A DNA stretch of 64,000 bases from a virus (lineage: Duplodnaviria > Heunggongvirae > Uroviricota > Caudoviricetes). Under the pieces are notes generated by a model that was given only the letters and a program-made list of their open reading frames with translations, was not told the DNA's origin and searched no databases. Shown one piece after another: positions 1,028-62,274 of this stretch. Position 1 is the first letter of the stretch. Each line of letters starts with the position of its first letter. Both the position numbers and the translations under genes were made by a program. Where the stretch lies: positions 77,246 to 141,245 of the IMG/VR virus record IMGVR_UViG_3300013936_000013, one strand, 5' to 3'.

Positions 1028-1067
1028 TGGGATTCTTATTTAATTATAAGAATCCCATTTTTTTTTG
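1028..1067. terminator. bidirectional rho-independent terminator between convergent genes
   Basis: Inverted repeat gggattctta...taagaatccc followed by T-run. Confidence 0.7.
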
Positions 1068-1577: not shown

Positions 1578-1672
1578 TATTTCACCTCTTATTCTAGTAT
1601 ATCATAAAAAAAGTATTTTGTCAAAAAAAATAAGAGAGTAGTTTTTATAACTACTCTCTTATATATTATCTA

Positions 1673-6588: not shown

Positions 6589-9500
6589 TTAATTTACTGA
6601 GTAGCGTTCATGCTCAAGTTCAATATCACCATCATGGATAGCCATAATTTGATATAACTGATGAGTTTTTGTATGCTTATAAGTTTTAGTCTGGAACATG
6701 TCATCACGTCTAAAGCCAGTTACCATGATTTTAGTTCCTCGTGTAAACCAGCTCTTTTCAACAACTTTCTTACTGCCATCAGGCTGGACTTCAGAAAGTT
6801 GTCTATTGTACATTGCAAAATATTCTTTTGTAAATTTAACATTTACAACACCATCAAGAGTTAGCAAAGAAATAGAAGAACGAGTATCATTTTTTCCAAT
6901 TACAGTACCTATAATTTTGTAAGTTTTATAAATAGGAATATCTTTACCATTTCTCTTGAAAGTTGTTTCAATAACAGGAGTAGTAGGAAGTTCAAAGAAA
7001 TTACTTAAGCCATATTTAACAGTATCAACAGAAGCTAATACATGTTTATGATAATAGAAACACAAACTTTCCATTTCCCAATCAGAAATGCTACCTAAAG
7101 CATATTTATTCCAACTTTCCATGAAAAGCATAGTGTTTAATTGATTAAGAACTTCATTCTGATTATCTTTTAACCAATTTCTGGCATCATCCATAACTTT
7201 CTTATAAATTTTATCCCATGTAGATTGAAGAATACAGGTACAACCATTAATTACAGACAGATTTTCTTCACTGAAATAATCATTATAAAAAGCCAAGCAA
7301 TTATCATCAAAAAGATAACATTTATCTACTTTCTTTTCTTTCAGGTATTTATTAAAAGCAAAAACTCTTTTCTGTAAGTCTAATTCATCAGGAACTAATC
7401 CTTTTTGCATTAGAGTGCTAAAGTTTTGTAGATTTAACTTAGTTTTACCTTCATATACAGACAGAATATAAAAAGCCATAATTGCAAAACGCGGTTCTGC
7501 ACAAATTTCTTTTGCCCAATGTTCATCAACCTTATCAAAAGCTCCTGCTTTAATTAAAGAAATCATAACAGTTTTATTAAGTGGGCAGCGTCTCATAAAA
7601 TCTACAATTCCAGAATAAGGACGTCCAGCAATGATTGCATCAATAATCGGTCCACCAACCTTATTAACACCCTTCATGCCAAACAAAATTTCATTATTTT
7701 CAGGATCAGGTTCAAAACTATAACTAGATTTGTTAATATCAACTAAAGAGATTTTAATACCACGAGAACGAATATCTCCAATAGCTTTAGCTAACTTACC
7801 ATAATCAGTAGTTTTGTCTTTCTTATCGGTTGCATCTTCATCATCATCTTCTTCAGATTCAAGAGATGCACTATTAATAATTAAACAGGCGGTGTTCCAA
7901 TAAATTGGATTCCAACGAGTTGCAATATAAATAGTCTGAAAACCGATGAAACTATAAGCCAATGCGTGTATGACGGAAAAAGAGTAACCTAGCTGGGGAG
8001 CGACACCACACTTCCAAATATACTTACCCAAACAAGGACTTTTTGCTTGCTTAAGAACTTTATCTCGAAGCTCAGGAATCTTAGACATTTGTTTCTTACC
8101 AACAATTTTGCGGGCTGCATTAGCTTCAGCGAGCGTGAAACCGCAAATCTTCTCATCCATTAACATTTTCATCAGCTGCTCTTGGCTTGGCGGGACACCA
8201 TAAGATTGTTTAAAATAAGGTTCAACTGTCTTTTGCTCTTCTTTTGTCAAACCATACTCATTCATTTCTCGATACCACAGATTAATATTATTCTTAAAAC
8301 GGATATATTTTTCCATAGGTGTCTCTTCGCCTTTTTCTGAGGTCATTAGTCTCATCAAGCCATTGGCGTCTGCCATCTCAAAGATGCTGTTCGGTTTAAT
8401 CTTTTTCGCCGCCTGACTTCCGACATCAGAATCAAACTGAAAGATATTCAAAACAGAGTTATCATGCAGAACGTTCCAATACTTCTGGTCATTAATAGGC
8501 AAAACCGCAGGATGAAAATATTTATTATAGACTTCTTTCAAAGAGAGTTCAGGTTCAATTTCACCATGCTCTTGTAAAAGATGGATAGCCTCGACCAATT
8601 TATCTTGGACCTCGGTAACAAGAAAATCATACTTAGTCATTCCAGCGGCCTCGCACATATGGAGGTCATATTGAGTGATAACCTCTCCTTTCGGAGTCTT
8701 CATAAAACATCCAAATTCATACGGGTCTTCATCAAAAAGAATAACACCAGATGCATGAGAGCTGCGTTTATTAACCAGACCCTCAATAGCAATCATAATA
8801 TCCATCAGACCTGGATACTGATTCACTTCCTTTAAAAAAAGCTGATTAGGCTTTCTATCTTTATCAGGATTACCATTAATAACATCTTTCAGCGGCCACA
8901 GGAAACCACGTTCACTAGGAATCAAAGAGGAAATATACTGAGCTGTATCGCTATCAATACCTTCAGGAAACTCTTCGCTACGATAACCGCGGCAAGCAGT
9001 AAGAATTGTGCTTCGAGTACCTTCAGTACCGAAAGTTGCAATTAGAGTGCAACCTAAGTTCTTGCGAGACAGCTCATCAATATTTGCATTAAATTTCTGA
9101 CCACGCTCTTCTTTAATCTTTTTAAGAATTAGAGGACGCTTACTAGGACAGAGATCCAAGTCAATATCACCTAGTTCTGTACGTTCTTTATTCAGATAAC
9201 GCCAGAATGGGAGCTCATACTTAATCGGATCCAACTGAGTAATACCAAGAAGATAATGATTTAAACCAGAACAACTTGAACCACGACCCGCACCAACAAT
9301 ACTACCACAATTCCAAAACAAATCAACATAATGCTGAAGAGTTACAGGATAAGCAAACATATTAGTTTCGAGCTTTTGTCCAATAGTTCTTTTAATATCG
9401 GCTTCCTCTTCTAGTCTTGCCACATAATCAAGATGGTCAAAAGGTGCACCAATATTTTTAATTAAAGAGTTCCAACATTCATTAATCCAATAACGCTCAA

Positions 9501-10551
9501 TCTTATCATCAGACGTAAACATAGATTTAAGAACTGGATAATTTTCAATCTCATCTCTATCAGAATTATTCACGCCAAAAGAACGCTTAGGATAATCACG
9601 AACTTCAACTTTAGGAATAGTTTGTTTATGGAGCAAACTATAATTCTCAATTTTGCTCCAAATTTCCATAGAATTTTGAAACATTTGATTGATAAACAAA
9701 GAATCAAAATTAGATTGGCTTAAATTTTGAAAGATTTCTTCATTGCTCTGAAGATAAGCATACTCATAGAAGTCATCGACCTCACGCTCACCGCCTTTAG
9801 AATTAAGATATGCCTTATGAACATATCTATCTTCTTTCCTTAAATAATGAGCATCAGTACCAATAACCATTTTAAGACCAAAACAATGCGCAATAGAAAC
9901 AAGTCTTTGATTAACCTTAATCTGGTCGGTGGAGCAGCCAGGAGCACACTCAATATAAAAATCTTCTCCAAAGAGTTCCTTGCACATAAGAATAAAATTC
10001 ACAATATCATTATGTGCTTCGACTTTTGAGTTTTCATCATTATGTTCTTCTGCTTTAATTAGATTTAAAGTTTGACTAGATACTTCACCGCCTAAGCAAG
10101 CAGTAGTAGCAATTAAACTATTTGGATATTTATGAACGATTTCTTTCAAATCATCATAAAGAGTAACAACACGCTCCATACCACGGTCATAATAACTATT
10201 CATCCATGCGCGACTAGACAACTCCCGCAAAGCTCTATGACCAGTTTTATTTTTTGCAATCAAAATAAAATGATAATATTTCTGTCCCATTTCGCGAGAA
10301 GGACAAAGATAAATCTCATTACCAAGAGCTACCTTAAAATCAGGATATTTCTCAGCAATCTTTTGAGCATAAATATTAACTTCCATGTGAGCGCAAAGCG
10401 CATCATGGTCAGTAATAGCAATACCCGCCAGACCTAATTCAATCGCTCTATTGATAAGATATTCTGCTCGATTAATGCAATCCAAGAGTCGAATATTCGA
10501 GTATTCTGTGTGCGAATGAATTTCAAACCTTTGGTTTAAAACTTTCAGCAA
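6589..10551 (-). CDS. dnaE: DNA polymerase III alpha-type replicative polymerase with N-terminal PHP domain (TTG start)
   Basis: 1320 aa; PHP motif HSHTEYSNIRLLDC at N-term; no in-frame TAG. Confidence 0.8.
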   Translation of the reverse strand: MLKVLNQRFEIHSHTEYSNIRLLDCINRAEYLINRAIELGLAGIAITDHDALCAHMEVNIYAQKIAEKYPDFKVALGNEIYLCPSREMGQKYYHFILIAKNKTGHRALRELSSRAWMNSYYDRGMERVVTLYDDLKEIVHKYPNSLIATTACLGGEVSSQTLNLIKAEEHNDENSKVEAHNDIVNFILMCKELFGEDFYIECAPGCSTDQIKVNQRLVSIAHCFGLKMVIGTDAHYLRKEDRYVHKAYLNSKGGEREVDDFYEYAYLQSNEEIFQNLSQSNFDSLFINQMFQNSMEIWSKIENYSLLHKQTIPKVEVRDYPKRSFGVNNSDRDEIENYPVLKSMFTSDDKIERYWINECWNSLIKNIGAPFDHLDYVARLEEEADIKRTIGQKLETNMFAYPVTLQHYVDLFWNCGSIVGAGRGSSCSGLNHYLLGITQLDPIKYELPFWRYLNKERTELGDIDLDLCPSKRPLILKKIKEERGQKFNANIDELSRKNLGCTLIATFGTEGTRSTILTACRGYRSEEFPEGIDSDTAQYISSLIPSERGFLWPLKDVINGNPDKDRKPNQLFLKEVNQYPGLMDIMIAIEGLVNKRSSHASGVILFDEDPYEFGCFMKTPKGEVITQYDLHMCEAAGMTKYDFLVTEVQDKLVEAIHLLQEHGEIEPELSLKEVYNKYFHPAVLPINDQKYWNVLHDNSVLNIFQFDSDVGSQAAKKIKPNSIFEMADANGLMRLMTSEKGEETPMEKYIRFKNNINLWYREMNEYGLTKEEQKTVEPYFKQSYGVPPSQEQLMKMLMDEKICGFTLAEANAARKIVGKKQMSKIPELRDKVLKQAKSPCLGKYIWKCGVAPQLGYSFSVIHALAYSFIGFQTIYIATRWNPIYWNTACLIINSASLESEEDDDEDATDKKDKTTDYGKLAKAIGDIRSRGIKISLVDINKSSYSFEPDPENNEILFGMKGVNKVGGPIIDAIIAGRPYSGIVDFMRRCPLNKTVMISLIKAGAFDKVDEHWAKEICAEPRFAIMAFYILSVYEGKTKLNLQNFSTLMQKGLVPDELDLQKRVFAFNKYLKEKKVDKCYLFDDNCLAFYNDYFSEENLSVINGCTCILQSTWDKIYKKVMDDARNWLKDNQNEVLNQLNTMLFMESWNKYALGSISDWEMESLCFYYHKHVLASVDTVKYGLSNFFELPTTPVIETTFKRNGKDIPIYKTYKIIGTVIGKNDTRSSISLLTLDGVVNVKFTKEYFAMYNRQLSEVQPDGSKKVVEKSWFTRGTKIMVTGFRRDDMFQTKTYKHTKTHQLYQIMAIHDGDIELEHERYSVN

Positions 10552-10570
10552 TCTTATGCCCCCTTACTTT

Positions 10571-10596
10571 ATATAATATATTATAACATATTTTTT
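10571..10596 (-). promoter_or_regulatory. conserved extended -10 promoter (TGTTATAAT) upstream of polymerase gene
   Basis: Motif copy tatattataacatatttttt on plus strand. Confidence 0.55.
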
Positions 10597-10855
10597 AGAT
10601 AATTGCAGAAATAGGTCTTAGATTAAATCCTGTTTGAGGAAGTTTCAAAGATTGAATTAAATATCTACAATACCATCCTTCTGAGGTTTCATATAAATCA
10701 GATTCTTTAAAACCATTCTACTTTGCCCAATCATAAGCTAATTCTTTAGCTGTTGGTTTATGGTCAAATTCAGAAACAACGTATAAAATATAATTTTCAA
10801 AACCTTCTGTTCCTGTCTCTGCAGTCTAAATTACATAAGATAAATAATAATACAT
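10595..10855 (-). CDS. hypothetical small protein (86 aa); 2 in-frame TAG
   Basis: GAGG RBS + ATG 10855; open through 2 TAG to TAA 10595. Confidence 0.4.
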
Positions 10856-10862
10856 AAAAACC

Positions 10863-12038
10863 TCATTTCTTAACAATAACTACTTTATCACTTGCGCGGG
10901 TTACTGCCGTATAAAGCCATCGAGCATGTTCTACAATATTAAAAGGAAACTTCTCTTCAATAACTAAAACCTTAGGCCACTCGCTGCCTTGGGACTTGTG
11001 ACAGGTGATAGCGTACCCGAACGTAAATTCCATTGGAACGAGTCCTTTAGTCTTTTCATTCTTACTTAGTTTAAAAGCTAATTTAGAATCAATGCCTTTC
11101 TCACCAGTGAGAATCATACTCTTATCCATTGAGAGTCTACCAAAGTCCTCATTACTGTCAGAAATAAATTGAGTATTAATTGCGGGAATACTACCTCCAC
11201 CGCACCAGTAAGGTAAGTATTTTGGAGAATTAACAGTGTCATGTAAGTAACCAATAGTACCATTAGTCAATGCTCCGCCCTCATTAGAGAACGTATCCCA
11301 ATAATTTCTAAGGCAAATAACTTTATCACCATCTTCAGGCATATTTCCTCTACCAAGTAGTGACCGCATCTGGTTATTAACTGCAATGCGGGTAGCATTA
11401 GTTCCAACAAGCACCTGATCCGCCCACATAAGCATACCCGTATTTAAGTCTGCTTTGTTAAAAACTTGTACTTCATTACCATGCATTTCTACTAGAGGTT
11501 TCATTGCACGAATATCCATACTAATTCTAATAATTTCTGATTCTGCGGCTTGCCGCATAATTTCATCCAAAAAGACATGAGGGTGGTCAAGTAGATGATT
11601 ATTGCTATTAGGGTCAATAGTAGGAAGTTGAAAAGGGTCTCCCAAACAAATAACATAAATATTCTTATAACTAAAAAGCAAGTCAATTAAGTCCTTACTT
11701 GCCATAGATACTTCATCTACAACGACAAATTTATAATCAATCATGGCTTTTGGTTTCTTATAAAAAGTACCATCGCCTTTTGGAAAGCTATCATACAAGA
11801 GCTTATGCAGAGTCATTGCATTTTTATTTCCCTTTTTGTGCAATACTTCTGCGGCTTTGCCTGTAAAAGCCGTATAGACTACGTCATCTTCGTCTGCATC
11901 TAGAGCCTCAATAATAAAACGGACTAGAGTTGATTTGCCTGTGCCCGCATACCCACTGATAACAGTGAACTTTTCTCCTGCAAGATATCTATCTAGAGCA
12001 ATCTTAAGTCCTTCAAGCTGTTTTGTGGTAAGAGTCAT
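10863..12038 (-). CDS. SF1B DNA helicase (Dda/RecD-like)
   Basis: Walker A GYAGTGKST, Walker B VVVDEVSM, C-terminal helicase motifs. Confidence 0.7.
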   Translation of the reverse strand: MTLTTKQLEGLKIALDRYLAGEKFTVISGYAGTGKSTLVRFIIEALDADEDDVVYTAFTGKAAEVLHKKGNKNAMTLHKLLYDSFPKGDGTFYKKPKAMIDYKFVVVDEVSMASKDLIDLLFSYKNIYVICLGDPFQLPTIDPNSNNHLLDHPHVFLDEIMRQAAESEIIRISMDIRAMKPLVEMHGNEVQVFNKADLNTGMLMWADQVLVGTNATRIAVNNQMRSLLGRGNMPEDGDKVICLRNYWDTFSNEGGALTNGTIGYLHDTVNSPKYLPYWCGGGSIPAINTQFISDSNEDFGRLSMDKSMILTGEKGIDSKLAFKLSKNEKTKGLVPMEFTFGYAITCHKSQGSEWPKVLVIEEKFPFNIVEHARWLYTAVTRASDKVVIVKK

Positions 12039-12295
12039 TCATCTTCACCTCGAAATTCTTTATCTAAATCTGCTAGTTTCTTCTTCCAACGCCGCAATCT
12101 AACTTTCTTTGTTCTATTTCTTATACGAGTCTCTTCTTTTGACTCATTGCATTTTCTTCTCGAAAGTTCATCATCTCTGTACCCATAACCACAATGGTCA
12201 CAGTTGCCGCAAATACAAAATTCATTTTCTTTTTCAATATTTTCAATGACAGATTTTATAGCGTTTCTTCTAATTTCATATTCATTTTTATCCAT
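12035..12295 (-). CDS. small Cys-rich Zn-ribbon protein (86 aa)
   Basis: CxxC...CxxC pattern; intact ORF with GAGGT RBS. Confidence 0.5.
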   Translation of the reverse strand: MDKNEYEIRRNAIKSVIENIEKENEFCICGNCDHCGYGYRDDELSRRKCNESKEETRIRNRTKKVRLRRWKKKLADLDKEFRGEDE

Positions 12296-12339
12296 TTTTT
12301 ATACCTCTATATTATTATACTATAAAATAATAAAAAAAT

Positions 12340-12385
12340 CAAAAGTCAATTTTTGAATTGAAAAACTCTAAACTGACTTTTGATT
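12340..12385. terminator. terminator hairpin
   Basis: tcaaaagtca...tgacttttga inverted repeat. Confidence 0.55.
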
Positions 12386-12419
12386 TTAATATACGATAGA
12401 GTGCGCTACAAGCATCTCA

Positions 12420-13573
12420 TTAAAAGAAATATTTACTGCTATCAATTACTTGATAATCACTAATAATTAATTGAGGATACTTTCTACCATTCCAATTATT
12501 CTCACAACATTTACATACTGCTTCAATTTCTTTCCAGCCAGTAGTAGTAAATGCTTCAATATCTTCTTCAGTTCCTGCAAATTTAATAAGAGATAAACCA
12601 TTATTTAAAGTAATCTTAAGAGTTTGCTTTGCCATAACTGCAAAATTAGAATTGGTTACTTTAAATTTCATTACTACATAAGGACGTTCAACATCTTGAC
12701 CCCAATAACTATTCATTTCAGCAATATCAAAAATTACATTATTTTCAACCGTTGCTTCATCAAAAAGATAATCAACTTGATACATAGGTTCATGCGGATA
12801 CTCATCAATAATAGCGTCCACAGTTGCCATAAACTCATCTATACTATCTGCACGAATACCAAGACCTGCAGCATTTTCGTGTCCCTGACAATATAATGTT
12901 CCTGCGCATTGATCTAATACTTCTTTAAAATTCATTAAACCAAATTTAGTATATCCACGCATAGAACCTTCATATGAAGGAATTTTTTTACTATCTTCTG
13001 TTGTATAAATATTCTTAGTTAAAATACAACAAGGACGTTGATAAACATTAATAAATTTATTAGCAATTAAGCCACGAATTTCGGAAGGTAGCTCATTAGC
13101 ATCTTCAAGCAGGAAGAGTAAGAAGTTATGTTCATTAAGCATATCTTCTTCTTCAATTTTTTTCTTAAGGCGCTCCATGCCTGCTTCAACCGCTCTGTCT
13201 TGATGATTTTTAGTATTATTAACTGCTCTCATGGCGTTAAGAACAAGCAAATCTTCTTGCCCTTTAGCTCCTCTCTTGTTTGAAGGAACTTTATTAAATG
13301 CCTTAAAATTAAGCATTGAATTAAATAAAAGCTGTTTGTCTTCTGGTGTACCACTTCGAGTCATTGCATTGACAAAAGGAACAACAAAGAATGCAGCTCC
13401 ATATGAAGTGCAAGCTAATTCTTTTTCATAAGGGATATAATCAGTTTTAGAAAGAGGAAAACTATTTTTATCAAGCATATACTCAATAAAGGGGTTCTTG
13501 ATATTTTCTTTTCTAAAACCTTTGTTAATAAGATATTTTGTTTCAATAGATAATAGACTCATCATATCTGCGT
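12420..13573 (-). CDS. recJ: RecJ-like ssDNA exonuclease, exon 2 (DHHA1 domain, GHENAAG motif)
   Basis: DHHA1 motif CQGHENAAGLGI; proposed 3' splice site leaves exon 2 starting agacgcagatATG... so the join reads DLVALGL|DADMMSLL (cf. RecJ DLVALGTVADVVPL). Confidence 0.65.
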
Positions 13574-14645
13574 CTCGTATAGCTCCAATATTTCTATTGG
13601 TACTGACTATATTTTAATAACTTGAAAGTTATTATATCTCTTTCGGTTTTCATAGGCTTCGTTTCCTAAAACCTAGCTACATACTAATAGTAACCCTACT
13701 CCCCAGCATTTCAACCTAAGGGATAGTCGATACAGGCTTCATTATTTTATATATGTCCATGTCTCTCTTTTACAAACTCTTCTAATAGAATTTTTATTTA
13801 CAAATGGAAAATCTTTACTGATAGAACCAACTTTTTCTCCATTATCATATCTTTTTCTAATGGCTTTAACATCATTTTCAGTAAGTTTTGCTTTGTTATT
13901 GTTTTCTCCTCTATTGGCTATTGAGGAATATTCTTGTCTACTAATTTCATTTGTAGGTATTATAAACTCTTTTCCTATGTGAGGAAAACTTTTTCCTAAC
14001 CATATTTTTTCAAAAGTACCAAAAGATTTATCTGAATAATCTTGATAAACATCAATTTTTCTTTCTCCTGCAAATCTTCTTTTTCTAATTTCTAAAACTT
14101 CTTCGTTAGAAAAAACTGAATTTGGATTGTCCTCTCCTAATAAGGCTTCTCCGCCAGGAGTTAGATTATATCCAATACTCTTCTCATTTGAATGAAATTT
14201 ACTTATCCAATACTATTCTCTTTCAGATAACAAGGAAGGGTCTTCTACGTATTCTAAAATTTCTATTTCTTCAAATCTTCTATACTTTTGAATAGCTAAA
14301 TCACAAGGCGTATTATAATGATTTTTTAAACGATTTGTGTTATTATGTTCATACATTCTTCGTTTTATATCATTACTTAAACCTATATAAATTTTTCCAT
14401 TTGGAAAATTAAGTTTATAAATACCTGAGACGCCATTTTTTAATTCTTTTATTTTCATATTCATGTTTCATGTCTATCCTTTCTGACATGATACATATAT
14501 TTCATAATGATTCCCACGGTATTTTCATATCATCATAACATCATGTCATAATAACTTAAAATTCACCGTTAGCATATTATTTTATACTGTCCAAAATAAT
14601 ATACCCCGCTAGTAAACGGAAAAGATATATTAGCCCAAACACTTC
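13574..14645 (-). mobile_element. group I intron (1072 nt) interrupting recJ-like gene, carrying a GIY-YIG homing endonuclease ORF
   Basis: 5' exon ends in U (GGCCU) able to pair with intron IGS GGGCU; intron ends in G; P/Q-like elements (GCUAACGGUG...UACCGUGGGAAUC) in 5' part and R/S-like elements (CGACUAUCC ... AAAAUAUAGUCAG) in 3' part; paralogous to intron at 29084..30177. Confidence 0.65.
13742..14464 (-). CDS. GIY-YIG homing endonuclease with NUMOD-like C-terminal repeats (intron-encoded); 1 in-frame TAG
   Basis: GIYKLNFPNGKIYIGLSNDIKRRMYEH; C-terminal GENNNKAKLTENDVKAIRKRY / GEDNPNSVFSNEEVLEIRKRR repeats; ORF 14213..14464 ends in TAG and frame continues to TAA ~13742. Confidence 0.75.
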
Positions 14646-15292
14646 AGGCCTAGCGCTACAAGGTCGATATAACTATCTGCGTAATGTTGATGAATCATTT
14701 TATCAAAATATCGACAAAACTGCCAAGCAACTCCAACACCAGACAATTCTTTATTTGGATAATTACTTAATTGATTATTAATTACGATAGCATCTGTGCT
14801 AATCTTATCTGCAAGATGATGGTCTAAAATAAGCGTTTGTCCACCATATTCTTTAATAATCTGATGCTCTTTAAAATCATTAGAAGAAGAATCAGGACAG
14901 ATAACTAAATCAAATTTATTCTATTTAATATAATTGATACAATCATTTAACCCATGCTGCTTGCCATCATGCAAATAAACACTTAAACTATTAGAGACCC
15001 AAGAAGGAAAAACATCATAAAGATAATTTACAATAAGAGCACCTGAAGTATAGCCGTCACAGTCACAGTCAACTACAACTAATACAGTTCCATTTTTGTT
15101 TACAGTTTGAAGAATTGCGGCAAGTCCAGCTTTAAGATTCTCTTCCCCTAAGCCTTCAGGCGGATTAATGCAGCTGTCATCCGCATTAATATAGTTTTCT
15201 AAGTCGCTCATTTTAAGTCCTCTATTGACTAAAACCTGTTCAAGTGGGCTTAAACTAGGACTCATATATTCATTAATTAAAGTATATTTCAT
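14646..15292 (-). CDS. recJ: RecJ-like ssDNA exonuclease, exon 1 (DHH domain); 1 in-frame TAG
   Basis: DHH motifs VVVDCDCDGYTSGALI and LILDHH; reads through TAG at 14921; in-frame stop only after proposed 5' splice site. Confidence 0.65.
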
Positions 15293-16378
15293 TTATAAAA
15301 AAATCCTTTCTTGAAAGAGTTCTAAGAAAAGTTCTGGACCTTGATCTATTGGACTAGCTTTATATTCAAGACGATGTTGGGTATCAAAAATAAAAGACAT
15401 TTGGCATAAACTTTTATATTTTTCATTAATAGCTTCAAGTTTATGAGTCCATCTCTTAAAATCTTTATCTCCAATTTCTTGATACTGTCTATCAAAAGCA
15501 ATAATAATTTCAGTAACACCTAAAGATAATAGTAGATTAGCTTGATAAGAAATAAAATTACTTCCACAACAAGCTACACTAATATCATTATCTTTACCAA
15601 AATAAGAAGCATATAACAAAGTAGATTTTTCACTTTCAAACACTATTGCTTTATGAATAATCTTAATTGCTTCTTTACTATTATTTAAATTATAAAGATT
15701 AAAGCCAAGAGGATGATTGTACATTACACCATTAATAATTGCAGGGCGATATTTACCATCTGCTTCTTCTTCTTTTACCATAGTCCTCTCGCGGATTCCA
15801 ATAAGATTTCCATCAATATCATAATGAGGAATTATGATACCTTGAGCTACTGGGTCATATTTAATACCATGATATTTCATTACCTCTGTATCAATATGCT
15901 CTTGTTCCCAAGGGGTGATTCGCGGAGTAGGCAAATATTGAAGAATTTTTTCTGGATATGTTTTCAATTCAACAATTTGTTTATCATTGATGGAATTGAT
16001 TCGGCTGTAATTATTAAAGATTTCCCAATCAGGAAGTTTTTCTTGTAAATCAGAAAAATCATCATTATACAGCTCATAGCCAAAATATCTCGCTACATAA
16101 TTAATAGCTCTAGGCAAAAGCCACTCTTCATTTAGCTCGCGAGATTTAACTTTCATTACAAGCTGATAAATGTCAAATGAGTCCTCTGGACATTGAGTAT
16201 AACACTTAAAAAGATGAGTATTATTATAATAATACAGCTTATGCGAATCGCCATCATGACATATGGTTCGTGAAACAAAAGAACCATTGCCCATACGCGG
16301 ATCTCCGCCTAATTCCGCGACTAATCCAAATACTTGGTCTATTGTTAATTCATTTTTTAATGTATCTTTATCAATCAT
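15293..16378 (-). CDS. dnaG: DNA primase (DnaG-like, CHC2 zinc finger + TOPRIM)
   Basis: CHDGDSHKLYYYNNTHLFKCYTQC zinc-binding region near N-terminus; adjacent to dnaB. Confidence 0.6.
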   Translation of the reverse strand: MIDKDTLKNELTIDQVFGLVAELGGDPRMGNGSFVSRTICHDGDSHKLYYYNNTHLFKCYTQCPEDSFDIYQLVMKVKSRELNEEWLLPRAINYVARYFGYELYNDDFSDLQEKLPDWEIFNNYSRINSINDKQIVELKTYPEKILQYLPTPRITPWEQEHIDTEVMKYHGIKYDPVAQGIIIPHYDIDGNLIGIRERTMVKEEEADGKYRPAIINGVMYNHPLGFNLYNLNNSKEAIKIIHKAIVFESEKSTLLYASYFGKDNDISVACCGSNFISYQANLLLSLGVTEIIIAFDRQYQEIGDKDFKRWTHKLEAINEKYKSLCQMSFIFDTQHRLEYKASPIDQGPELFLELFQERIFL

Positions 16379-16380
16379 AA

Positions 16381-17925
16381 TTAAAATGCACTCGCTTGAA
16401 TCTTAGGATTAACATTAATCTTCAAATCTTCAATTTCAATTAGCTTATACTGAAAATCGGTCATAAAAATAGGTTCAATGCGGCAAGTGCCTCTATCTGC
16501 CCTACACCAAAGAAGAACATTCTTCCATCTACCACGACGATTTTTATATACTGAAATCTTAATTTCAGGCATCGGGATATCAGAACCTAATACAGTTTCC
16601 AATGCTTTTTCATCATCAGGTGTTGTTTGTAACATAATCATACCTACGTCAATCTTATCTGCAATAGATTTTGCTCCTCGTAGAAGATTCTGATCAGGAG
16701 TAGAGCTAGTTTGATAATCGCTATTTAACTGAGTTGCAGTCATAATGAATACACCATACTCATTGCACAAATCCTTTAACCGTACACTAATCATAAATAG
16801 AATGTTATCTTCACGCAGATTTTTGACGCCTGCTTTTGAGCTGATTTCAGACAATATCTTCAAAGAGCTATGAATGTAATCAAAAAAGATATATCTAACT
16901 CCCCATTCACGAATTGCATATTTGATACAATTTTCAATATCTTGAAGTGAAAAATCAGGCAACTTTTTAATATATAGAGGACTTTTTTCAATTAGATCTG
17001 CTGCCTTAAGGACTCTTTCTTCTTCGCCCTCGCCATACTCACCAGTTAGAATATGTTCCTCATTAACCGCAGAAAGAAAAGCTAGCATCATAGTTTGAAT
17101 TTCTTCTTCGTCCTGCTCTGTTCCAATAAATAAAGCTGGCTCTTTAGTCCCATTAGGGATCCAATCTCTTTTATTCACATCATAAATTTCATCACAAGCA
17201 ATATTACAAACATCTGCAATCATTGCACGAGTTTTACCAACGCCAGTCGCGGCAGACCGCAAGTAGAATTTCTTAAGACGAGCTCCTCGATGAATTGTAT
17301 TAACAAGAGGTCCATAAAGAGGATAGCCAATTTCTGGTGTATCTTTTAATCTCTGGATAAGATCTCTAATGCCCTCGCCCGCCTGACAAAAATCATCATC
17401 AGAATTATCTACATACTTAAGACGAATATCTGTAATCTTTTTATCAATTAAGTCTGCAATTTCATCAATAGGAGTATTATCTAACCATTCTTCCTGCTTT
17501 TGCTTTTTCTTTAAATCAAGAATATTATCAATATCATAAAGCCACTTTAAGTCCATACCAATAGATTGATACATTCTTAAAAGTGTCATTTTCTTCATCT
17601 TTTGATAATAATAATCAAAAGCAGTTATCTGAACATTATTTATAAGGTTCTGAAGATATTCAGAACCTTTATTAGTTTTATATACCGCATATTTCTTAGG
17701 ACGTTGTTCCAAATAATCTTCAATTACTGCGGGAGTGATGTCTTTCGCGCCTAACTGATGAAGATTAAAAATTGAACCAAAAAGAATTTTATGAAACTCT
17801 TCTGGGAAATCTTCTTCATAAAAAGTATATTTATCTTCCATGTCAAGCAATGATGGATTTGTATAAATACCACCAATTACTTGAACAATCGAAGGCGTGT
17901 CTACATATTTACTCATTTTCGTCAT
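16381..17925 (-). CDS. dnaB: replicative DNA helicase (DnaB family)
   Basis: Walker A SAATGVGKT, DnaB C-terminal RecA-like domain; 514 aa. Confidence 0.8.
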   Translation of the reverse strand: MTKMSKYVDTPSIVQVIGGIYTNPSLLDMEDKYTFYEEDFPEEFHKILFGSIFNLHQLGAKDITPAVIEDYLEQRPKKYAVYKTNKGSEYLQNLINNVQITAFDYYYQKMKKMTLLRMYQSIGMDLKWLYDIDNILDLKKKQKQEEWLDNTPIDEIADLIDKKITDIRLKYVDNSDDDFCQAGEGIRDLIQRLKDTPEIGYPLYGPLVNTIHRGARLKKFYLRSAATGVGKTRAMIADVCNIACDEIYDVNKRDWIPNGTKEPALFIGTEQDEEEIQTMMLAFLSAVNEEHILTGEYGEGEEERVLKAADLIEKSPLYIKKLPDFSLQDIENCIKYAIREWGVRYIFFDYIHSSLKILSEISSKAGVKNLREDNILFMISVRLKDLCNEYGVFIMTATQLNSDYQTSSTPDQNLLRGAKSIADKIDVGMIMLQTTPDDEKALETVLGSDIPMPEIKISVYKNRRGRWKNVLLWCRADRGTCRIEPIFMTDFQYKLIEIEDLKINVNPKIQASAF

Positions 17926-18418
17926 CTCCTAAATCAAAGAGTCGTGGCGGTTTTACGTAGACCCGCGGAGACCCAATTTCTATTTCTTTTGTTTTAAAAG
18001 TAGTTACTTTCTTATCAATATTGCTCATTTGCGCAAGATACAAAGCATAATAATATTCACAAGCCTGCTTATAAGCGAAAGGAATAATACCAATACCGCC
18101 ATTAGCCTTTTCTATTGAATTGTTCTTTACCTCATACCACCAAATTAATGTTTTAAGCATACCGCTATAAGTATAATTATATTTCTCTTTGTATTCATTA
18201 ATTTGTTTTCTTACTCTTGCATTTACAAATGGTTCATCAAATAATTTCATTATATATTGTTCAAGAGCTTCAAGGTCTTTTTGCTCTTGAGTTTGAACTT
18301 CTTCTTTATGCTCAGCGCATTCTGGATGAGCATATCTGCGGGCATTCACTTTTACCATAGGAACTTTATCTCTATCGACCTTTTTCCCGCAATAAAGACA
18401 AGTTACTAAATGTGCCAT
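17909..18418 (-). CDS. hypothetical Zn-binding protein (169 aa)
   Basis: N-terminal CxxC...HxxC; intact ORF. Confidence 0.45.
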   Translation of the reverse strand: MAHLVTCLYCGKKVDRDKVPMVKVNARRYAHPECAEHKEEVQTQEQKDLEALEQYIMKLFDEPFVNARVRKQINEYKEKYNYTYSGMLKTLIWWYEVKNNSIEKANGGIGIIPFAYKQACEYYYALYLAQMSNIDKKVTTFKTKEIEIGSPRVYVKPPRLFDLGDDENE

Positions 18419-18445
18419 ATCAACAACTTCTCTTTCTTATAATTC

Positions 18446-18476
18446 TTATATATTATAACATAAAATATAAAAAAAG
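18446..18476 (-). promoter_or_regulatory. conserved extended -10 promoter (TGTTATAATATATA)
   Basis: Motif copy tatatattataacataaaat followed by A-tract. Confidence 0.55.
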
Positions 18477-18505
18477 TCAAGAGGTATTTCTCCTCTTGAC
18501 TTTTA
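18474..18505. terminator. terminator hairpin
   Basis: gtcaagagg...cctcttgac inverted repeat with flanking A/T runs. Confidence 0.6.
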
Positions 18506-18508
18506 AAA

Positions 18509-19549
18509 TTAGGATTCAGTTTTTGCAAGGTCTTTCAGTTCAGTAACAATCAAATCAAGTGCTTCTGTCTGGTCACGAGAACACTGATTAACTTTCTGCC
18601 CCTTGCCCAAATACTTTTCAGTAATTTGGACGATACGTGGCTGATAATAAGATACGAACTTATCTTCAGGAATCTTTTCAATCATACCATTAACGATTTC
18701 ATTGAAAGAAGTAATCAGCTCATCAAAATCAGGAGTTTCAGTTTCCTCATAAGTATTGATTCGAGCATCAGTAAAATACTCTGTACCATCTTCAGCCATC
18801 TGCTTATCAATAGCATCTCCAATAGCCGCGACAAGACTTGGATAATTAAAATCAATTACTTCAGGAGTATATTTAAAACGAGAACCTGCCATATATCTTG
18901 GCGTACCGCGGATAAAGAGCTTAGTAACAACAGAGCCATCATCATTCTGAATTGCTCTTGAATAACCAATAATATCGCACAAACGAGATACAATATTACG
19001 AGCACGCTTATCAAGAGTAGGAACAATCTGATTAAACTCCTTACCAGTCTCATCAGTAAAGGTTTTATCAACAGCATGGCTAATCAAAACCAGACCATAG
19101 TCAAGCTGAACAATCGCACGAAGACATTCATCGAACTCTTTTGCAACCATTCCATAGCCCTTACCGAAAGGAATATCTGCGATAGAATCAACGCCAAAAC
19201 CGCCACCCTGCTCCTTAGTACGAGGAGCATTTGCACAAACATATTTTTCACAATAGTCATATGCAATATCTGCGGTATCAACGATAATAGTCTCAAATCG
19301 CTCCTTAACTGCGGGATCCTTCAGCTGACGAAGAACCTTACGGAAATCACTCCATGAGTTAATAGGCTGAGCCATTACGCCCGGAATAGCTGAATAGCCT
19401 TTCTCGAAAGCAAGAAGCAGATGATGCGGGAACTTAGTTGCAGTAGTTGTCTTACCGCTCTTAGGGTCTCCATACAGAAAGACCGAATATCCACGAAGGT
19501 CACGGCTGACCTGATGTGGAGCCAAATTAAGCAAATCAATTCCAGCCAT
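18509..19549 (-). CDS. RecA-superfamily ATPase (Sak4/AAA_24-like recombination ATPase)
   Basis: Walker A GDPKSGKTT, Walker B IIVDT; 346 aa. Confidence 0.55.
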   Translation of the reverse strand: MAGIDLLNLAPHQVSRDLRGYSVFLYGDPKSGKTTTATKFPHHLLLAFEKGYSAIPGVMAQPINSWSDFRKVLRQLKDPAVKERFETIIVDTADIAYDYCEKYVCANAPRTKEQGGGFGVDSIADIPFGKGYGMVAKEFDECLRAIVQLDYGLVLISHAVDKTFTDETGKEFNQIVPTLDKRARNIVSRLCDIIGYSRAIQNDDGSVVTKLFIRGTPRYMAGSRFKYTPEVIDFNYPSLVAAIGDAIDKQMAEDGTEYFTDARINTYEETETPDFDELITSFNEIVNGMIEKIPEDKFVSYYQPRIVQITEKYLGKGQKVNQCSRDQTEALDLIVTELKDLAKTES

Positions 19550-19567
19550 TAATATAAACCTCCAAAA

Positions 19568-20542
19568 TTAAAAATTAAAAGATGCGGTTTTTGCAGGTGC
19601 TGCTGGAGATGCAGTAGTTGCTTTATTGTCAGCAAAATTCACTGTACCACCCTTAGCGAGTGCCTGAGAAGCCTTATATTCATCACTACGCTTCTTAATT
19701 TCTGCCCAGTGAATCTCACGATCCTGACAGCCCTTCATAACCTCTTCTGCGGTAAGAACTTTCTCATCACCGTACTCATAAGGAACCTTAGCAGTGCCAG
19801 TCACAAGCCACTCACGAGATTTAGTTTCTGCAATACGAACCTGAGCTTCGCCCCAAGCAGAATCTTCACGATATTCACGCTTGATGGTCTTGCAGTTAAT
19901 ACGACCCCACAACTTAGTGAAAGTAGGATTAGCATCAGATGCATCCATGTCCATAAAGTACTCCATACCGCCCTTATTGCGAATTACAAACTCCACAGGC
20001 AAAATCTCATTGCGGAAGTTAAATACAATGCCAGAAACAGTGCAATAATCTTCCTCAATATGCTTCTCAGGATTTGCTTCGATATGACGAACCTTAGTAA
20101 TTAACATATCCATCTGAAAAGTGTTACGCTCATTCTCAGGACACAGTTCAGTTACAAAACTAACAAAGCCGCCCTCATTACGCTTTGCAGAAACTCGACT
20201 GCCATCATTAGCAATAAAATCATTCAAAGCCAGTGCAGTATCGACTTTAATCTTAAAGGCTGCATCCTTACCGCCAGCAACCCAAGTCTTATCAGGTTCA
20301 GCAATCAACTTCTCCAGAACCGCATAAGTTGCATTCTTCTTACCCTGAGAAGTAGTTGCAGTTACATAGGTAAAATGAACTGTAATAACATTCAGAGCTT
20401 CCTCATCCACAGCAATCTCCAAATCACCAGAAATAAAATCCTGACCAAAATTCTTAGACTGCTCATTCTTAACCTGCTTTACTGTCAGACTATGCTGATA
20501 AACATAACCTTCCAGATGCTCTGCATTTACACATTTACGCAT
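19568..20542 (-). CDS. hypothetical protein, possible ssDNA-binding/annealing partner of Sak4-like ATPase
   Basis: Intact 324-aa ORF next to Sak4-like gene; Ala/Pro-rich tail ending FNF; function inferred from context only. Confidence 0.3.
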   Translation of the reverse strand: MRKCVNAEHLEGYVYQHSLTVKQVKNEQSKNFGQDFISGDLEIAVDEEALNVITVHFTYVTATTSQGKKNATYAVLEKLIAEPDKTWVAGGKDAAFKIKVDTALALNDFIANDGSRVSAKRNEGGFVSFVTELCPENERNTFQMDMLITKVRHIEANPEKHIEEDYCTVSGIVFNFRNEILPVEFVIRNKGGMEYFMDMDASDANPTFTKLWGRINCKTIKREYREDSAWGEAQVRIAETKSREWLVTGTAKVPYEYGDEKVLTAEEVMKGCQDREIHWAEIKKRSDEYKASQALAKGGTVNFADNKATTASPAAPAKTASFNF

Positions 20543-20603
20543 ATATTATTTTTCTCCTTTAATTTATGTTACTTAATTATTATACACTATTTTTAATAAA
20601 ATA

Positions 20604-20969
20604 TCAACTATTATAACTCTTACCTAAATCAGTTAGAGCATACATAACAGGGTTTGCATTTTGTCTTACAACGTAACCACAAGTAATAAGTTTACGCATC
20701 GCACCAGACACTGACCGTGAACTCATAAAAAGTCCTTCACCAATTTCTTTTGTGGTCATTGCATTCTCGCAAGTCTGCATAAACTGAAGAATCTTCTGAC
20801 CAAGTTCAGTCATTTCTCCAGTATTCTTACTCTTGTCGGTTTTATTAAATTCATTCCAATAGCTTACAATATCTTCCCAATCTTCATCATTATAAATTTC
20901 GATATAGACTCCTGCTCGGTCAAAAATCTCTTTTTGAACACATTGAATAAATTTTTCTCTTTTTGTCAC
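20604..20969 (-). CDS. winged-helix (MarR-like) transcriptional regulator
   Basis: C-terminal MTTKEIGEGLFMSSRSVSGAMRKLITCGYVVRQ HTH. Confidence 0.5.
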   Translation of the reverse strand: MTKREKFIQCVQKEIFDRAGVYIEIYNDEDWEDIVSYWNEFNKTDKSKNTGEMTELGQKILQFMQTCENAMTTKEIGEGLFMSSRSVSGAMRKLITCGYVVRQNANPVMYALTDLGKSYNS

Positions 20970-20987
20970 GTTTAATAAAACCTCTTT

Positions 20988-21012
20988 TTCTTTTGATATT
21001 TTATTATATCAT
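20988..21012 (-). promoter_or_regulatory. conserved extended -10 promoter (TGATATAAT variant)
   Basis: Plus tttattatatcatattttt = minus aaaaatATGATATAATaaa. Confidence 0.5.
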
Positions 21013-21704: not shown

Positions 21705-22643
21705 TTAGCTTCCTCCTTTGGTGCTATTCATACCATAAATATTGCTTTGATATAATTCAATCCACAATTTTTCTTTTTCATTTAACTAATCTCTTGGGCA
21801 TTCTTCAAGAACCTCAAAGGTAAAATTCCAAATACCATCTTGTTGCATTGAAGTATAAAGTTTGTTAGATGCTGAAGCCCCAATGCCGCAACCGCACTTA
21901 CAATGTTGTTTAAAACGTTCTCCAATAGAAACACTCTAACCAATGTAACACTGTTGCGTTTTTAAATTAGTAATTTTATAAATACCAGTTTTATCAGTTT
22001 TACCTACAATTCTAGTACTCATTTCAGATACTTTCTTTTGTAAGTATTCAGACCAAATAAGTTTATTTAAAACTGTAACATTCCTAAAGCTGCTTCTTAA
22101 ATTGAATAGTAAGTTAATATCATTTAATTCATTTTCGCTCAAGGTAATTTTATAGAAGTCAAGTTTCTTTTTCTTTTCTTCTTCTCTTAACTACGCTTCA
22201 ACGCCTGCGGCGAGTGATGCTCTAATCTTACTTAAATCTAATTCAGCTTGTTTCTTTTGGACTTGTAAATTCAAGATATATTTATCAAAATCAGATTCCT
22301 TTTTAGAATACTCATTATCAAGAGTCTCCATATAAAAATGTGCGGCATCCTCTGCTGTGCGCTTATAGTCTAAGGCTTTTTTCGCTTCAGCCTCAGCTTC
22401 TTTCTTCTAATTAGCTAAAACCGCATATTCATTGCCGAGACTATCTAATTCTACCGTTAAATCAAGAATTGAATCATGTAATCTCTATTCTTCTGAAGTG
22501 TCTAGCTCTTGTTTCTTTTTTAATTCTTCCTATAAAGAATTTATCTTATCACATTGCTAGTTATGCTAATAAACTAAATAAATAATAATTCCTGAAAGAA
22601 ATAATAAGCTAAATACAACGAGACAAATAATAAATACTTCCAT
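21705..22643 (-). CDS. free-standing GIY-YIG endonuclease fused in-frame to N-terminal TM/coiled-coil region; ~10 in-frame TAG
   Basis: GIYKITNLKTQQCYIG[TAG]SVSIGERFKQH and LNEKEKLWIELYQSNIYGMN motifs; ATG 22643 to TAA 21705 is open apart from TAG codons; region shows no long ORF under the standard code. Confidence 0.6.
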
Positions 22644-22654
22644 ATCTATCTCCG

Positions 22655-22697
22655 AAAAAAGGGCTAATCAATTAAGATTAGCCCTTATAAAATACTT
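22655..22697. terminator. terminator hairpin
   Basis: agggctaatc...gattagccct inverted repeat. Confidence 0.55.
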
Positions 22698-25316: not shown

Positions 25317-27686
25317 TTAAAGTTTTACAATATAATTAACTTCACTCTTAGTCATAATATTACCTAAGCTAGTTCTTACTAATTCAGGAATGTCAGTAGA
25401 AGAAATACAAATTGAATTAGGCTTACCAATCAATAGAATATTATCTTCCTTAGAAACCATTGCGGCTCCAACTAACTCTCCCGTAGAAGCAACTGCTTTA
25501 TAGCAAACTACGCCTTTTCCCGCACGACCCTGATATGGGAACTCACTTAATGCAGTTTTCTTTGCATAACCTTTTGAAGTAAAGAATGCGATATAATCAT
25601 TCTCATTATGGATTGGCAATCCAATCAAAACCTCATCATCGTCATCTAGTTTAATAGTTTTTACGCCTGCGGTGACTCTGCCAATAGGATTGATAGAAAC
25701 TGTGTCAAAATGGATACTCATACCTTTTCGAGTAATAACCACAATCTCTTCATCTTCAAGGAAAGTTACATTAGCAATAGAATCGCCATCGTTTAATTTA
25801 ATCGCCTGAATGCCAGTACTCTTCTTTACTTTCATATATTCAGAAAGCTCAGTTTTTTTTAATAGACCTTTCTTAGTAAAGAACACAACATACTTTGCTG
25901 TTGACTGACGATAAAGAGAAGTCATTGCAATAACTTTTTCATCATCATCCATAGTGATTAGAGAACTAATTCTTGAACCCTTAACTGTATTAGTTCCAAC
26001 AGGCACATTATCTACAAGCAGTCGATACATCTTACCCTTATTAGTAAAGAACATCAAAGTATCAACTGTATTCGTAGAAATGGTATCAAGAATTGCATCA
26101 TCCAAAGTTTTTACGCCCTTGCCATTTCGCTTTTGAACTTTAAAGCTCTTAGTAGGAACTCGCTTAATGTCTCCATTTTGAGTAAGCACAACAACAACGT
26201 CTTCAGGAGTTACTGTTGCAATCTCTTTCTCTTCAGGAGCAACATTAATTTGAGTAAGTTCTGTGCGACGAGCATCACCATATTTAGTCATTAATGCTGT
26301 TAATTTATTTTTAAGAACGATTTTTTGCTCATCTTCACTGTTAATTAAAACAGTCAAATTTTTAACAGATTCATCCAATTCAGCTTTTTCATTTTGTAGC
26401 TCAATTTTTTCCAAGCCAGCCAATTTACCAAGCTTCATATCAACAATAGCTTTAGCCTGATTAATAGTAAAACCATGGATTGAAGTTAAATTAGACACAG
26501 CATCCGCAGAACTCTTAGACTTTTTGATTAGAGCAATGATATTATCAATATCTTCAAGAGCTTTCAAAAGACCATCAACAATCTCTAATCGAGCTTTTGC
26601 TTTGTTAATATCAAATTCTGCTTCTCTCTTGATACACTCAAGATTATGTTTAATGTAAATCTTAATACAATCTACTAAGCCCAACTCAACAGGAGATTTA
26701 TCCACAAGAGCTACCTGATTGTAAGAAATTGAAGTCTGCAAATCAGTCTTTGCAAAAAGTTTTTTTACAACCGCATCAGGATTAGCATCCTTTTGGCATT
26801 CAATAACAATGCGGATTCCCTTTTTGTTACTTTCATCTCGAATCTCAGAAATACCTTCAACCTCTTTAGAGTCACAAACTTCTCCAATTTCAGTCATAAG
26901 GCCTTCAAGAGTCAACCCATAAGGAATCTCATAAAAGATAATTTTCTGCTTCTCAATGGTATATTTGCCACGAACTTTTACACTACCATGACCTGTTTTC
27001 ATAATTACGGGAATGTCATTTTTATTGATAATAATACCACCCGTAGGGAAATCAGGACCAGGTAAGACTGGTTCTTTTCCATCCATGTAATCAATAATTG
27101 CGGTTCCGACCTCGTTCAAATTGTGCGGGAGCCAGCTACAAGCCATCGCCACGCCGATACCTGTATTAGGATTACACAACAGATTAGGAAAGACAGAAGG
27201 CAAAGTTACAGGCTCTTCATCATTTTCGTCATAGTTAGGAATAAAATCAACAATCTTTTTCTTTAGACCATTGAGCATTCCATCTTCAGAAATCTTTGCC
27301 AATCTTGCATTAGTATAACGATAAGCTGCAGGTCCATCACCACCAATATTACCCATATTACCATGGAAATCAATCAGCGGATAACGCATTACCCAAGGCT
27401 GAGAAAGATGAACAAGAGCGCCATAAATTGAACTGTCACCATGCGGATGCCAATTGCCCATAACATCACCAACAATTTTTGCACATTTTGCGTACTCTTT
27501 ATTTGAAGCATAACCGCCGTCATAAGCGCCCCAAAGAATGCGGCGAGCGACAGGTTTAAGTCCGCTTCGAGCATCAGGTATACTTCTGTCCAAATTTACA
27601 GCTGCCGCATATTCAATAAAATTTTTACTTAATTCATATTGAAGGTCATTAATTTGATATTTATCTTTTAATTCAATATTATTCAA
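25317..27686 (-). CDS. type II DNA topoisomerase subunit A (GyrA/ParC-like; T4 gp52-like); TTG start
   Basis: ARSGLKPVARRILWGAYDG (GyrA N-terminal motif), 789 aa. Confidence 0.8.
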   Translation of the reverse strand: MNNIELKDKYQINDLQYELSKNFIEYAAAVNLDRSIPDARSGLKPVARRILWGAYDGGYASNKEYAKCAKIVGDVMGNWHPHGDSSIYGALVHLSQPWVMRYPLIDFHGNMGNIGGDGPAAYRYTNARLAKISEDGMLNGLKKKIVDFIPNYDENDEEPVTLPSVFPNLLCNPNTGIGVAMACSWLPHNLNEVGTAIIDYMDGKEPVLPGPDFPTGGIIINKNDIPVIMKTGHGSVKVRGKYTIEKQKIIFYEIPYGLTLEGLMTEIGEVCDSKEVEGISEIRDESNKKGIRIVIECQKDANPDAVVKKLFAKTDLQTSISYNQVALVDKSPVELGLVDCIKIYIKHNLECIKREAEFDINKAKARLEIVDGLLKALEDIDNIIALIKKSKSSADAVSNLTSIHGFTINQAKAIVDMKLGKLAGLEKIELQNEKAELDESVKNLTVLINSEDEQKIVLKNKLTALMTKYGDARRTELTQINVAPEEKEIATVTPEDVVVVLTQNGDIKRVPTKSFKVQKRNGKGVKTLDDAILDTISTNTVDTLMFFTNKGKMYRLLVDNVPVGTNTVKGSRISSLITMDDDEKVIAMTSLYRQSTAKYVVFFTKKGLLKKTELSEYMKVKKSTGIQAIKLNDGDSIANVTFLEDEEIVVITRKGMSIHFDTVSINPIGRVTAGVKTIKLDDDDEVLIGLPIHNENDYIAFFTSKGYAKKTALSEFPYQGRAGKGVVCYKAVASTGELVGAAMVSKEDNILLIGKPNSICISSTDIPELVRTSLGNIMTKSEVNYIVKL

Positions 27687-28578: not shown

Positions 28579-28683
28579 AAAAAACTCCTTATATTATATA
28601 TTATATTTTATTATAATAATATAAAAAATTATTATGCTTATTTTGTTACTATTGACCAAAATAGTCTATAAAAAATTAATTCA

Positions 28684-62268: not shown

Positions 62269-62274
62269 ATATAT

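Follow-up and report, generated by a model that had tools for sequence, protein, structure and literature searches.

A predicted mobile group I intron of the phage IA2-like kind in a RecJ-like exonuclease gene

The Interrupted RecJ-Like Gene

The window, by which we mean the whole 64-kb stretch of phage DNA that was analysed, contains an interrupted RecJ-like gene at 15292..12420 on the minus strand, and all elements of this locus described below lie on that strand. Exon 1 (14646..15292, 647 nt) encodes a DHH domain and terminates in ...GCGCUAGGCCU, and exon 2 (12420..13575, 1,156 nt) encodes DHHA1 and RecJ_OB domains and opens with AGACGCAGAUAUGAUG. The 1,070 nt that separate them (14645..13576; first base G14645, terminal G13576) are very probably a mobile phage group I intron (IA2-like) inside a gene for a RecJ-like ssDNA exonuclease. 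The ORF listing and translation give three ORFs at the locus. The exon 1 ORF runs from 15292 to ...IDLVALGL and then meets a stop; a GIY-YIG homing-endonuclease ORF of 240 codons plus TAA occupies 13742..14464 within the insert; and a third ORF begins with MMSLLSIETKY... and finishes at 12420. A first-pass annotation of this DNA had seen DHH and DHHA1 exons flanking the insert, and this was borne out for an insert of about 1.07 kb, with DHHA1 being weak.

Excision of the insert yields a 1,803-nt ORF with a product of 600 residues, in line with the approximately 600 aa that had been predicted. All three domains are present in this one spliced polypeptide: Pfam finds DHH at residues 70-215 (E=8.7e-13), RecJ_OB (E=4.7e-8) and, at residues 386-472, a weak DHHA1 domain that scores 22.2 bits and stays below the cut-off of 25.9. 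PHROG 2484 (‘RecJ-like ssDNA exonuclease’) matches the spliced product from end to end (E=2e-125). Both exons are needed for the enzyme, since exon 1 supplies the DHH motifs and exon 2 the GHxxAAG motif. Over 4,000 homologues of approximately 590-600 aa are contiguous; they match the spliced protein at 100% coverage and span the junction. The host site is the most conserved block of the RecJ-like gene, DLVALG|L-DADMMS, and the residues that flank the junction (D210-G215 and D219-S222) are invariant in the homologue sample. The junction DLVALGL|DADMMSL that had been proposed was confirmed.

The 5' splice site is preceded by U (T14646) and the last base of the intron is G13576. With exon 1 ending at T14646, the reading frame survives only if exon 2 begins at 13575, and therefore the insert is 14645..13576, 1,070 nt. 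The 3' splice site had originally been placed 2 nt off; an exon 2 starting at 13573, after an insert of 1,072 nt, contains 70 stops. In the spliced junction, ...GCGCUAGGCCU would form the 5' side and AGACGCAGAUAUG the 3' side. The same 3' boundary was found with a covariance model of the intron (R1, see below), whose match stops exactly at 13576.

An intron-less allele also defines the boundaries. The best homologue of the spliced protein, P0001, has 95% identity and comes from L002, a contig of 98 kb that is approximately 92% identical in DNA to, and syntenic with, 9000..21000 of the window. Its uninterrupted gene has 1,803 nt, which is exactly the sum of exon 1 (647) and exon 2 (1,156), and aligns with the joined exons without gaps. 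The intron boundaries are therefore exact. The intron-less site of the L002 type reads GCGCTTGGAAATGACGCAGAT. Substitutions between the two alleles cluster just 5' of the insertion site, where 9 of 22 positions (-21 to 0) differ, compared with approximately 9% gene-wide. At this place the intron-less allele has GGAAAT, whereas the intron-bearing allele has GGCCT|A, and therefore the guide-pairing GGCCU is specific to intron-bearing alleles. GGCCU was also kept in three divergent intron-bearing relatives.

Secondary Structure of the Intron

From its 5' end, the insert consists of the 5' splice site, the P1 loop, the guide GGGCU, the P3 5' strand, two hairpins (X and Y), CUAA, P4, P5 and P4'. 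This part is followed by P6/P6a with the ORF in its loop, GUAUC, P7, P7.1, AGUA and P7.2 around P7.2a and a hairpin Z. The 3' part consists of GAAA, P3', P8, AAAAU, P7', P9 and the terminal G. The P4-P6 and P3-P7-P8 domains of a group I core and the P3/P7 pseudoknot are present, with covariation support.

The final 5 nt of exon 1 (GGCCU, 14650..14646) make up the exon side of P1 and pair with the internal guide sequence GGGCU (14632..14636), which is the 3' strand of P1 (cognate test of exon and guide, p=1e-5). The pairing has an energy of -7.0 kcal/mol and places a U•G pair at the 5' splice site, so that the 5-bp P1 of the first-pass annotation is indeed present. Just 5' of the guide is GUUU (14640..14637), a candidate P10 partner of the exon 2 start AGAC. 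The P3 5' strand AUAUCUUUU (14620..14628) follows and has its partner at 13642..13634 (cognate test, p=1e-5). Between it and J3/4 are hairpins X and Y (14573..14619 together), of which X (CCGU/GCGG) covers 14619..14606 and Y, with 11 bp, 14603..14573. P4 (ACGGUG/UACCGU) encloses P5/P5a at 14516..14569. The 5' strands of P6 (GGG) and P6a (UCAUUAU) are at 14504..14515 and pair with 13745..13734 (cognate test, p=1.3e-5). On the other side of the ORF, and after the J6/7 sequence GUAUC, comes the P7 5' strand GACUAU (13723..13728), which pairs with 13610..13605.

The region between P7 and P3' (13645..13722) is a block of extra helices in which both partners of every pair vary among family members. 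It contains P7.1 (13722..13701), P7.2, in which GG at 13696..13695 pairs with CC at 13646..13645, the inner hairpin P7.2a (13694..13676) and hairpin Z (13675..13653) with the loop UUUUAGGAAACGAAG. The P3 3' strand AAGAGAUAU (13634..13642) is positioned as P3' of the td and Twort introns. It is followed by the P8 hairpin (13616..13633; six pairs, all covarying), by J8/7 (AAAAU) with the P7 3' strand AUAGUC (13605..13615), and by the P9 hairpin (CCAAUA-GAAA-UAUUGG) with the tail AGCUAUACG and the terminal G (13576..13600). The P/Q and R/S strings quoted earlier were all found: P and Q correspond to P4, R includes the P7 5' strand, and S corresponds to J8/7 with the P7 3' strand. When the ORF-deleted intron is folded without constraints, the minimum free energy structure contains X, Y, P4/P5, P6/P6a, P7.2a, P3, P8 and P9.

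Intron Family and Covariation

A 15-nt string that is common to both introns of the window (the second one interrupts a topo-B gene, see below) and to the intron of Enterococcus phages EF1/EF5 was used as a search pattern. It retrieved approximately 45 related introns in viral contigs, several of which are ORF-less. R1, a covariance model of the 3' domain, was built from 10 sequences and recovers 66 copies from 50 sources. Exactly two matches fall in the window, at 13576..13736 (170.7 bits, a seed of the model) and at 29084..29242 (134.2 bits, non-seed). It also matches the 3' domain of the T4 td intron at the right place (E=5.5e-7) and all three introns of Twort orf142 (E=2.5e-8, 1.5e-4 and 2.1e-4).

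In the R1 alignment 95.5% of the paired cells are occupied by pairs, compared with 69.3% in shuffled alignments (reached in 0 of 500 shuffles) and at most 43% with slid partners; the alignment was fitted to the model structure and so favours that structure, for which the slid-partner control is a partial remedy. Changes on both sides were seen for 28 of the 34 R1 pairs, and P7 is invariant in 59 of 59 family members. That the Z loop does not vary is in part an artefact, because its string had served as search pattern.

Helices that span the ORF or involve the exon were also examined with a cognate test, in which the duplex energy of an intron's own strands is compared with that of strands taken from other members. 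Cognate strands pair better for P1 (-6.3 vs. -3.5 kcal/mol, p=1e-5; 24 family members in different genes), for P3 (-5.1 vs. -2.2 kcal/mol, p=1e-5) and for P6/P6a (-7.4 vs. -2.6 kcal/mol, p=1.3e-5). P4 is fully paired in 28 of 28 members and has two covarying positions; the recJ intron has a compensatory double change of its own in P4 (G-C to U-A) that is unique to this copy. In several members the outer two base pairs of P7.2 are CC/GG instead of GG/CC. A MAFFT alignment of 28 ORF-deleted introns (A2) showed one-base register shifts near P7.2/P3' and misaligned the topo-B group with its long Y, and it was therefore replaced, for P3, by the covariance-model alignment and the duplex tests. Judged from these sequence comparisons, the insert is a group I intron with every core helix, covarying across a large phage family.

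The Rfam model Intron_gpI (RF00028) gave no match in the 64-kb window, neither at gathering score nor at E<=10. The T4 td intron, which served as positive control, reaches 40.3 bits and is itself below the cut-off of 50, and because of this the missing Rfam match is not evidence of absence. We conclude that RF00028 is insensitive to the td-type class of introns. An ORF-less relative (L035) scored 29.5 bits (E=5e-4), with P4-P6, P7 and P9 aligned as expected. That the inserted ORF causes the miss was rejected, since ORF-less relatives also fail at gathering score. R1 thus detects introns that the curated model misses. The first-pass annotation had recommended aligning the two introns of the window with each other and with Rfam models; the two are 73% identical in the 3' domain. 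Its main assignment, a group I intron with a GIY-YIG endonuclease in a recJ-like gene, is supported by the intron-less allele, the covariation and the similarity to td and Twort.

Placement of P3 and Subgroup

The P7.1 and P7.2 helices between P7 and P3' are a trait of IA2 introns such as td and Twort. Both are present in the recJ intron, both covary, and R1 aligns them to those of td and Twort. A second IA2 trait, P2 between P1 and P3 with the P3 5' strand abutting J3/4-P4, is not seen in the recJ intron. Here, and in the family, the P3 5' strand comes directly after the guide sequence and two hairpins precede J3/4. A P3 5' strand in the textbook position just 5' of J3/4 was tried as well and rejected, as it has no cognate signal with P3' (p=0.8 vs. 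1e-5). In addition, P7.2 of the recJ intron is opened into a three-way junction. No description of the P3-X-Y-P4 arrangement was found in the literature that was searched.

The Intron-Encoded GIY-YIG Endonuclease

The ORF at 13742..14464 is located in the P6a loop, as the GIY-YIG ORF inside the insert that had been reported before, and its stop codon overlaps the P6a 3' strand. It matches Pfam PF01541 (E=2e-11) and PHROG ‘homing endonuclease’ families. There are 233 homologues at E<=1e-5, with approximately 240 aa among the matches listed, and they are conserved over the full length, also downstream of an in-frame TAG (see below). Among the catalytic residues, Y16, Y26, R35/R36, H40 and N100 show no variation and E83 very little. 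A NUMOD label had been attached to the endonuclease as well, but neither NUMOD/IENR nor any other Pfam domain was detected in the C-terminal half, even at E<=10; this half contains a repeated module of approximately 55 aa and has a weak PHROG HTH match. The intron ORF is a full-length, conserved GIY-YIG endonuclease.

Recoding of TAG

One in-frame TAG each was found in recJ exon 1 (14923..14921), in the endonuclease ORF of the recJ intron (14215..14213) and in the endonuclease ORF of the topo-B intron; the first two are on the minus strand and had been overlooked in the first pass. Under the standard code they would truncate both the RecJ-like protein and the endonuclease. At 50215..56799 (-) an ORF of 2,195 codons contains 12 TAGs and no TAA or TGA, and other long ORFs with many TAGs and no TAA or TGA are found at 21705..22667, 32706..33389 and 27679..28593 (all -) and at further places. 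Many replication genes of the window phage are without in-frame TAG. A 99-nt tRNA at 62420..62518 (-) could not be typed by ARAGORN and has two tandem hairpins that resemble anticodon arms. The loop of the first is CUCUAAA, with the anticodon CUA of an amber suppressor, and the loop of the second is CUCUGAC, which is the anticodon loop of the adjacent tRNA-Gln(CUG) (62274..62346). This tRNA may be a suppressor with a long extra arm that derives from a duplicated Gln anticodon arm. Homologue alignments were uninformative about the amino acid at TAG, as the TAG positions are variable, and L002 has a TAG at a position that is CAG in the window.

The window phage resembles the phAss-1 or ‘Phassvirus’ group of gut phages, which have contigs of approximately 132-141 kb, read TAG as Gln and possess CUA suppressor tRNAs. 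Recoding of TAG to Gln and suppressor tRNAs have been published for this group, which is distantly related to phage EF1, in which TAG is not recoded (PMC10607447). Introns have 0 mentions in the same paper (PMC10607447). Because of the long TAG-rich ORFs, the CUA tRNA, the TAG/CAG exchange in L002 and the likeness to the phAss-1 group, we do not regard the TAGs as signs of decay; the phage reads TAG as a sense codon, probably for Gln. Since exon 1 and the endonuclease ORF have one in-frame TAG each and a tRNA with the anticodon CUA is encoded, the synthesis of full-length RecJ and endonuclease probably depends on TAG being read as sense. Should decoding of the endonuclease TAGs have to await expression of the suppressor tRNA, homing activity would be tied to the recoding programme of the phage.

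The TAGs within the reading frames of exon 1 and of the two intron ORFs, and likewise the missing Rfam match, could also be taken to mean that the insert is a dead group I descendant that no longer splices, in a locus where recJ and endonuclease are decaying. We consider this very unlikely, since recoding accounts for the TAGs, the endonuclease is conserved before and after its TAG, P4 has its compensated double change and the identical allele occurs in at least 18 contigs; moreover, the core score of 170.7 bits is among the best of the family, though this copy is itself a seed of the model.

Proposed Splicing and Homing

The reading that we prefer is an active, mobile intron. The guanosine-dependent splicing mechanism of td-type group I introns is established, and from the anatomy described above the recJ intron is expected to follow it. 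In the pre-mRNA, the exon sequence GGCCU would pair with the guide GGGCU to form P1, with U•G at the cleavage site. A free guanosine held in P7 would then attack after U14646. Next, the terminal G13576 would take the same site in P7 and the freed exon 1 would attack after G13576. Ligation of the exons as CU|A would create a Leu codon and thus the message for the enzyme of 600 residues. The endonuclease made from the ORF in the P6a loop is predicted to cut intron-less recJ alleles of co-infecting relatives, and repair of the cut allele would copy the intron into it, which constitutes homing.

Free-standing endonucleases are known to split phage genes, and gene callers in public assemblies give three ORFs of 220, 240 and 381 aa at this locus, the last from an ATG (13565) that sits three codons past the junction; yet that DHH and DHHA1/OB are made as two polypeptides around a free-standing, intron-less GIY-YIG gene, with nothing being spliced, is likewise very improbable, since a complete, covarying group I core flanks the endonuclease, precise removal of the insert gives a gap-free match to the uninterrupted gene, the guide fits the exon here and in other host genes, and the ATG is part of the invariant DMM motif that intron-less homologues have too. 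The first-pass annotation had itself named an exon 2 that starts at its ATG as an independent protein as the case that would speak against an intron; the >4,000 contiguous homologues span the junction. Because gene callers split the gene into three ORFs and Rfam is silent, the exonuclease is mis-annotated in the window phage and in many of its relatives.

Mobility and Relation to the Topo-B Intron

The second family member in the window is an intron of 1,094 nt in the topo-B (gyrB-like) gene (30177..29084, -), which splits the Toprim motif as DADV|DGAHI and scores 134 bits with R1. It has a GIY-YIG ORF of its own, with the in-frame TAG at 29864, and belongs to the same RNA family as the recJ intron. 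Between gyrB exon 2 and gyrA lies a Cys-rich ORF of 135 aa (28081..28488, -), which extends to a frame of 305 codons with seven TAGs (27679..28593) if TAG is read as sense.

An identity of about 75% to the core of the topo-B intron had been given for the recJ intron in the first pass. The likeness holds but the value does not, as blastn gives 71% over 167 nt and the aligned 3' domains are 73% identical. The endonucleases of the two introns share 40% identity. Each intron is nearer to introns of other phages: the recJ intron is closer to L089, which occupies the recJ site of a different phage (87%), and to L094, an intron in dnaB that has no ORF (86%), and the topo-B intron is closest to a topo-B-site intron (L032, 87%). 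Endonuclease relatives at 77%, 66% and 55% identity are all encoded between DHH and RecJ_OB ORFs, at the same splice junction. The two introns of the window are therefore old paralogues that belong to site-specific lineages. Recent homing between the two replication genes, which the first-pass annotation had suggested, is contradicted by these sequence relationships.

On shorter time scales the introns are likely mobile, as far as can be judged from their distribution. The identical intron-bearing recJ allele was found in at least 18 public contigs, the approximately 92%-identical L002 phage is without the recJ intron, and so closely related phages exist with and without it. L002 has a GIY-YIG intron at 12546..13797 in its DNA polymerase III alpha gene (R1 match at 13672..13797), and the window has an uninterrupted DNA polymerase III alpha gene, an ORF of 1,325 codons at 6589..10563. 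The intron content of the two phages differs in both directions.

Other insertions were observed in related phages. In DnaB-like helicase genes, family introns are found near each other (L035, 3147..3654; L094, 980..1644), and in L035 only an exon of approximately 35 nt separates two introns. In L132 a faint LAGLIDADG ORF (1029..1880) is found where recJ exon 1 is expected, 5' of the GIY-YIG intron, and may represent either another intron of this gene or an insert that resembles an intein.

Comparison with Known Introns

No description of a group I intron in a recJ-like gene was found in the searched literature. The recJ-like intron is an established kind of mobile element at a gene and site that we did not find described before. 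It is conceivable, but we would not call it likely as a whole, that the recJ intron and its relatives (at least approximately 50 IMG/VR copies) are a branch of the phage group IA introns that stands apart in structure, with the P3 5' strand right after the guide, two hairpins between P3 and J3/4 and a P7.2 three-way junction with the UUUUAGGAAACGAAG-loop hairpin, and that in TAG-recoded phages both the endonuclease and the host gene are gated by amber suppression, with homing timed by the suppressor tRNA. Beyond annotation, a possible and specialist interest is limited to this structural variant of P3 and to the TAG-gated endonuclease.

In an annotated phage collection, the sole match to the recJ intron was the intron of Enterococcus phages EF1/EF5, with 74% identity over the 3' 165 nt. 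This intron is a member of the family (137 bits with R1) and has the same ending ...ACACG|A, but its host is the DNA polymerase III alpha gene, which is intron-rich, and it carries another intron ORF.

The introns in orf142 of Staphylococcus phage Twort belong to group IA2 and include a ribozyme of solved structure. Twort intron 1 has a near-identical string at P3, GAAAAACUUUUC...UAA-P4, and Twort also shares a near-identical string at P3', CGAAAUGG.... As read from the Twort sequence, P2 comes before P3 and P3 abuts J3/4, whereas approximately 50-110 nt (hairpins X and Y) separate P3 from J3/4 here. Twort introns 2 and 3 have no ORF, in contrast to the recJ intron with its endonuclease ORF.

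The T4 td intron (I-TevI, group IA2) has the same core order of P7, P7.1, AGUA, P7.2, GAAA, P3', P8 and P7', and likewise a GIY-YIG endonuclease ORF in the P6a loop. It differs in that P2 precedes P3 and P3 abuts J3/4, whereas in the recJ intron there is no P2 before P3 and two hairpins follow, and P7.2 is a three-way junction with the extra hairpin Z. The endonuclease of the recJ intron differs from I-TevI by an in-frame TAG and by a C-terminus without detectable NUMOD or I-TevI DNA-binding domain. Both introns reside in a phage gene of DNA metabolism, which is thymidylate synthase in T4 and a recJ-like gene here, and the recJ-like gene and its site are an addition to the phage genes that are invaded by group I introns.
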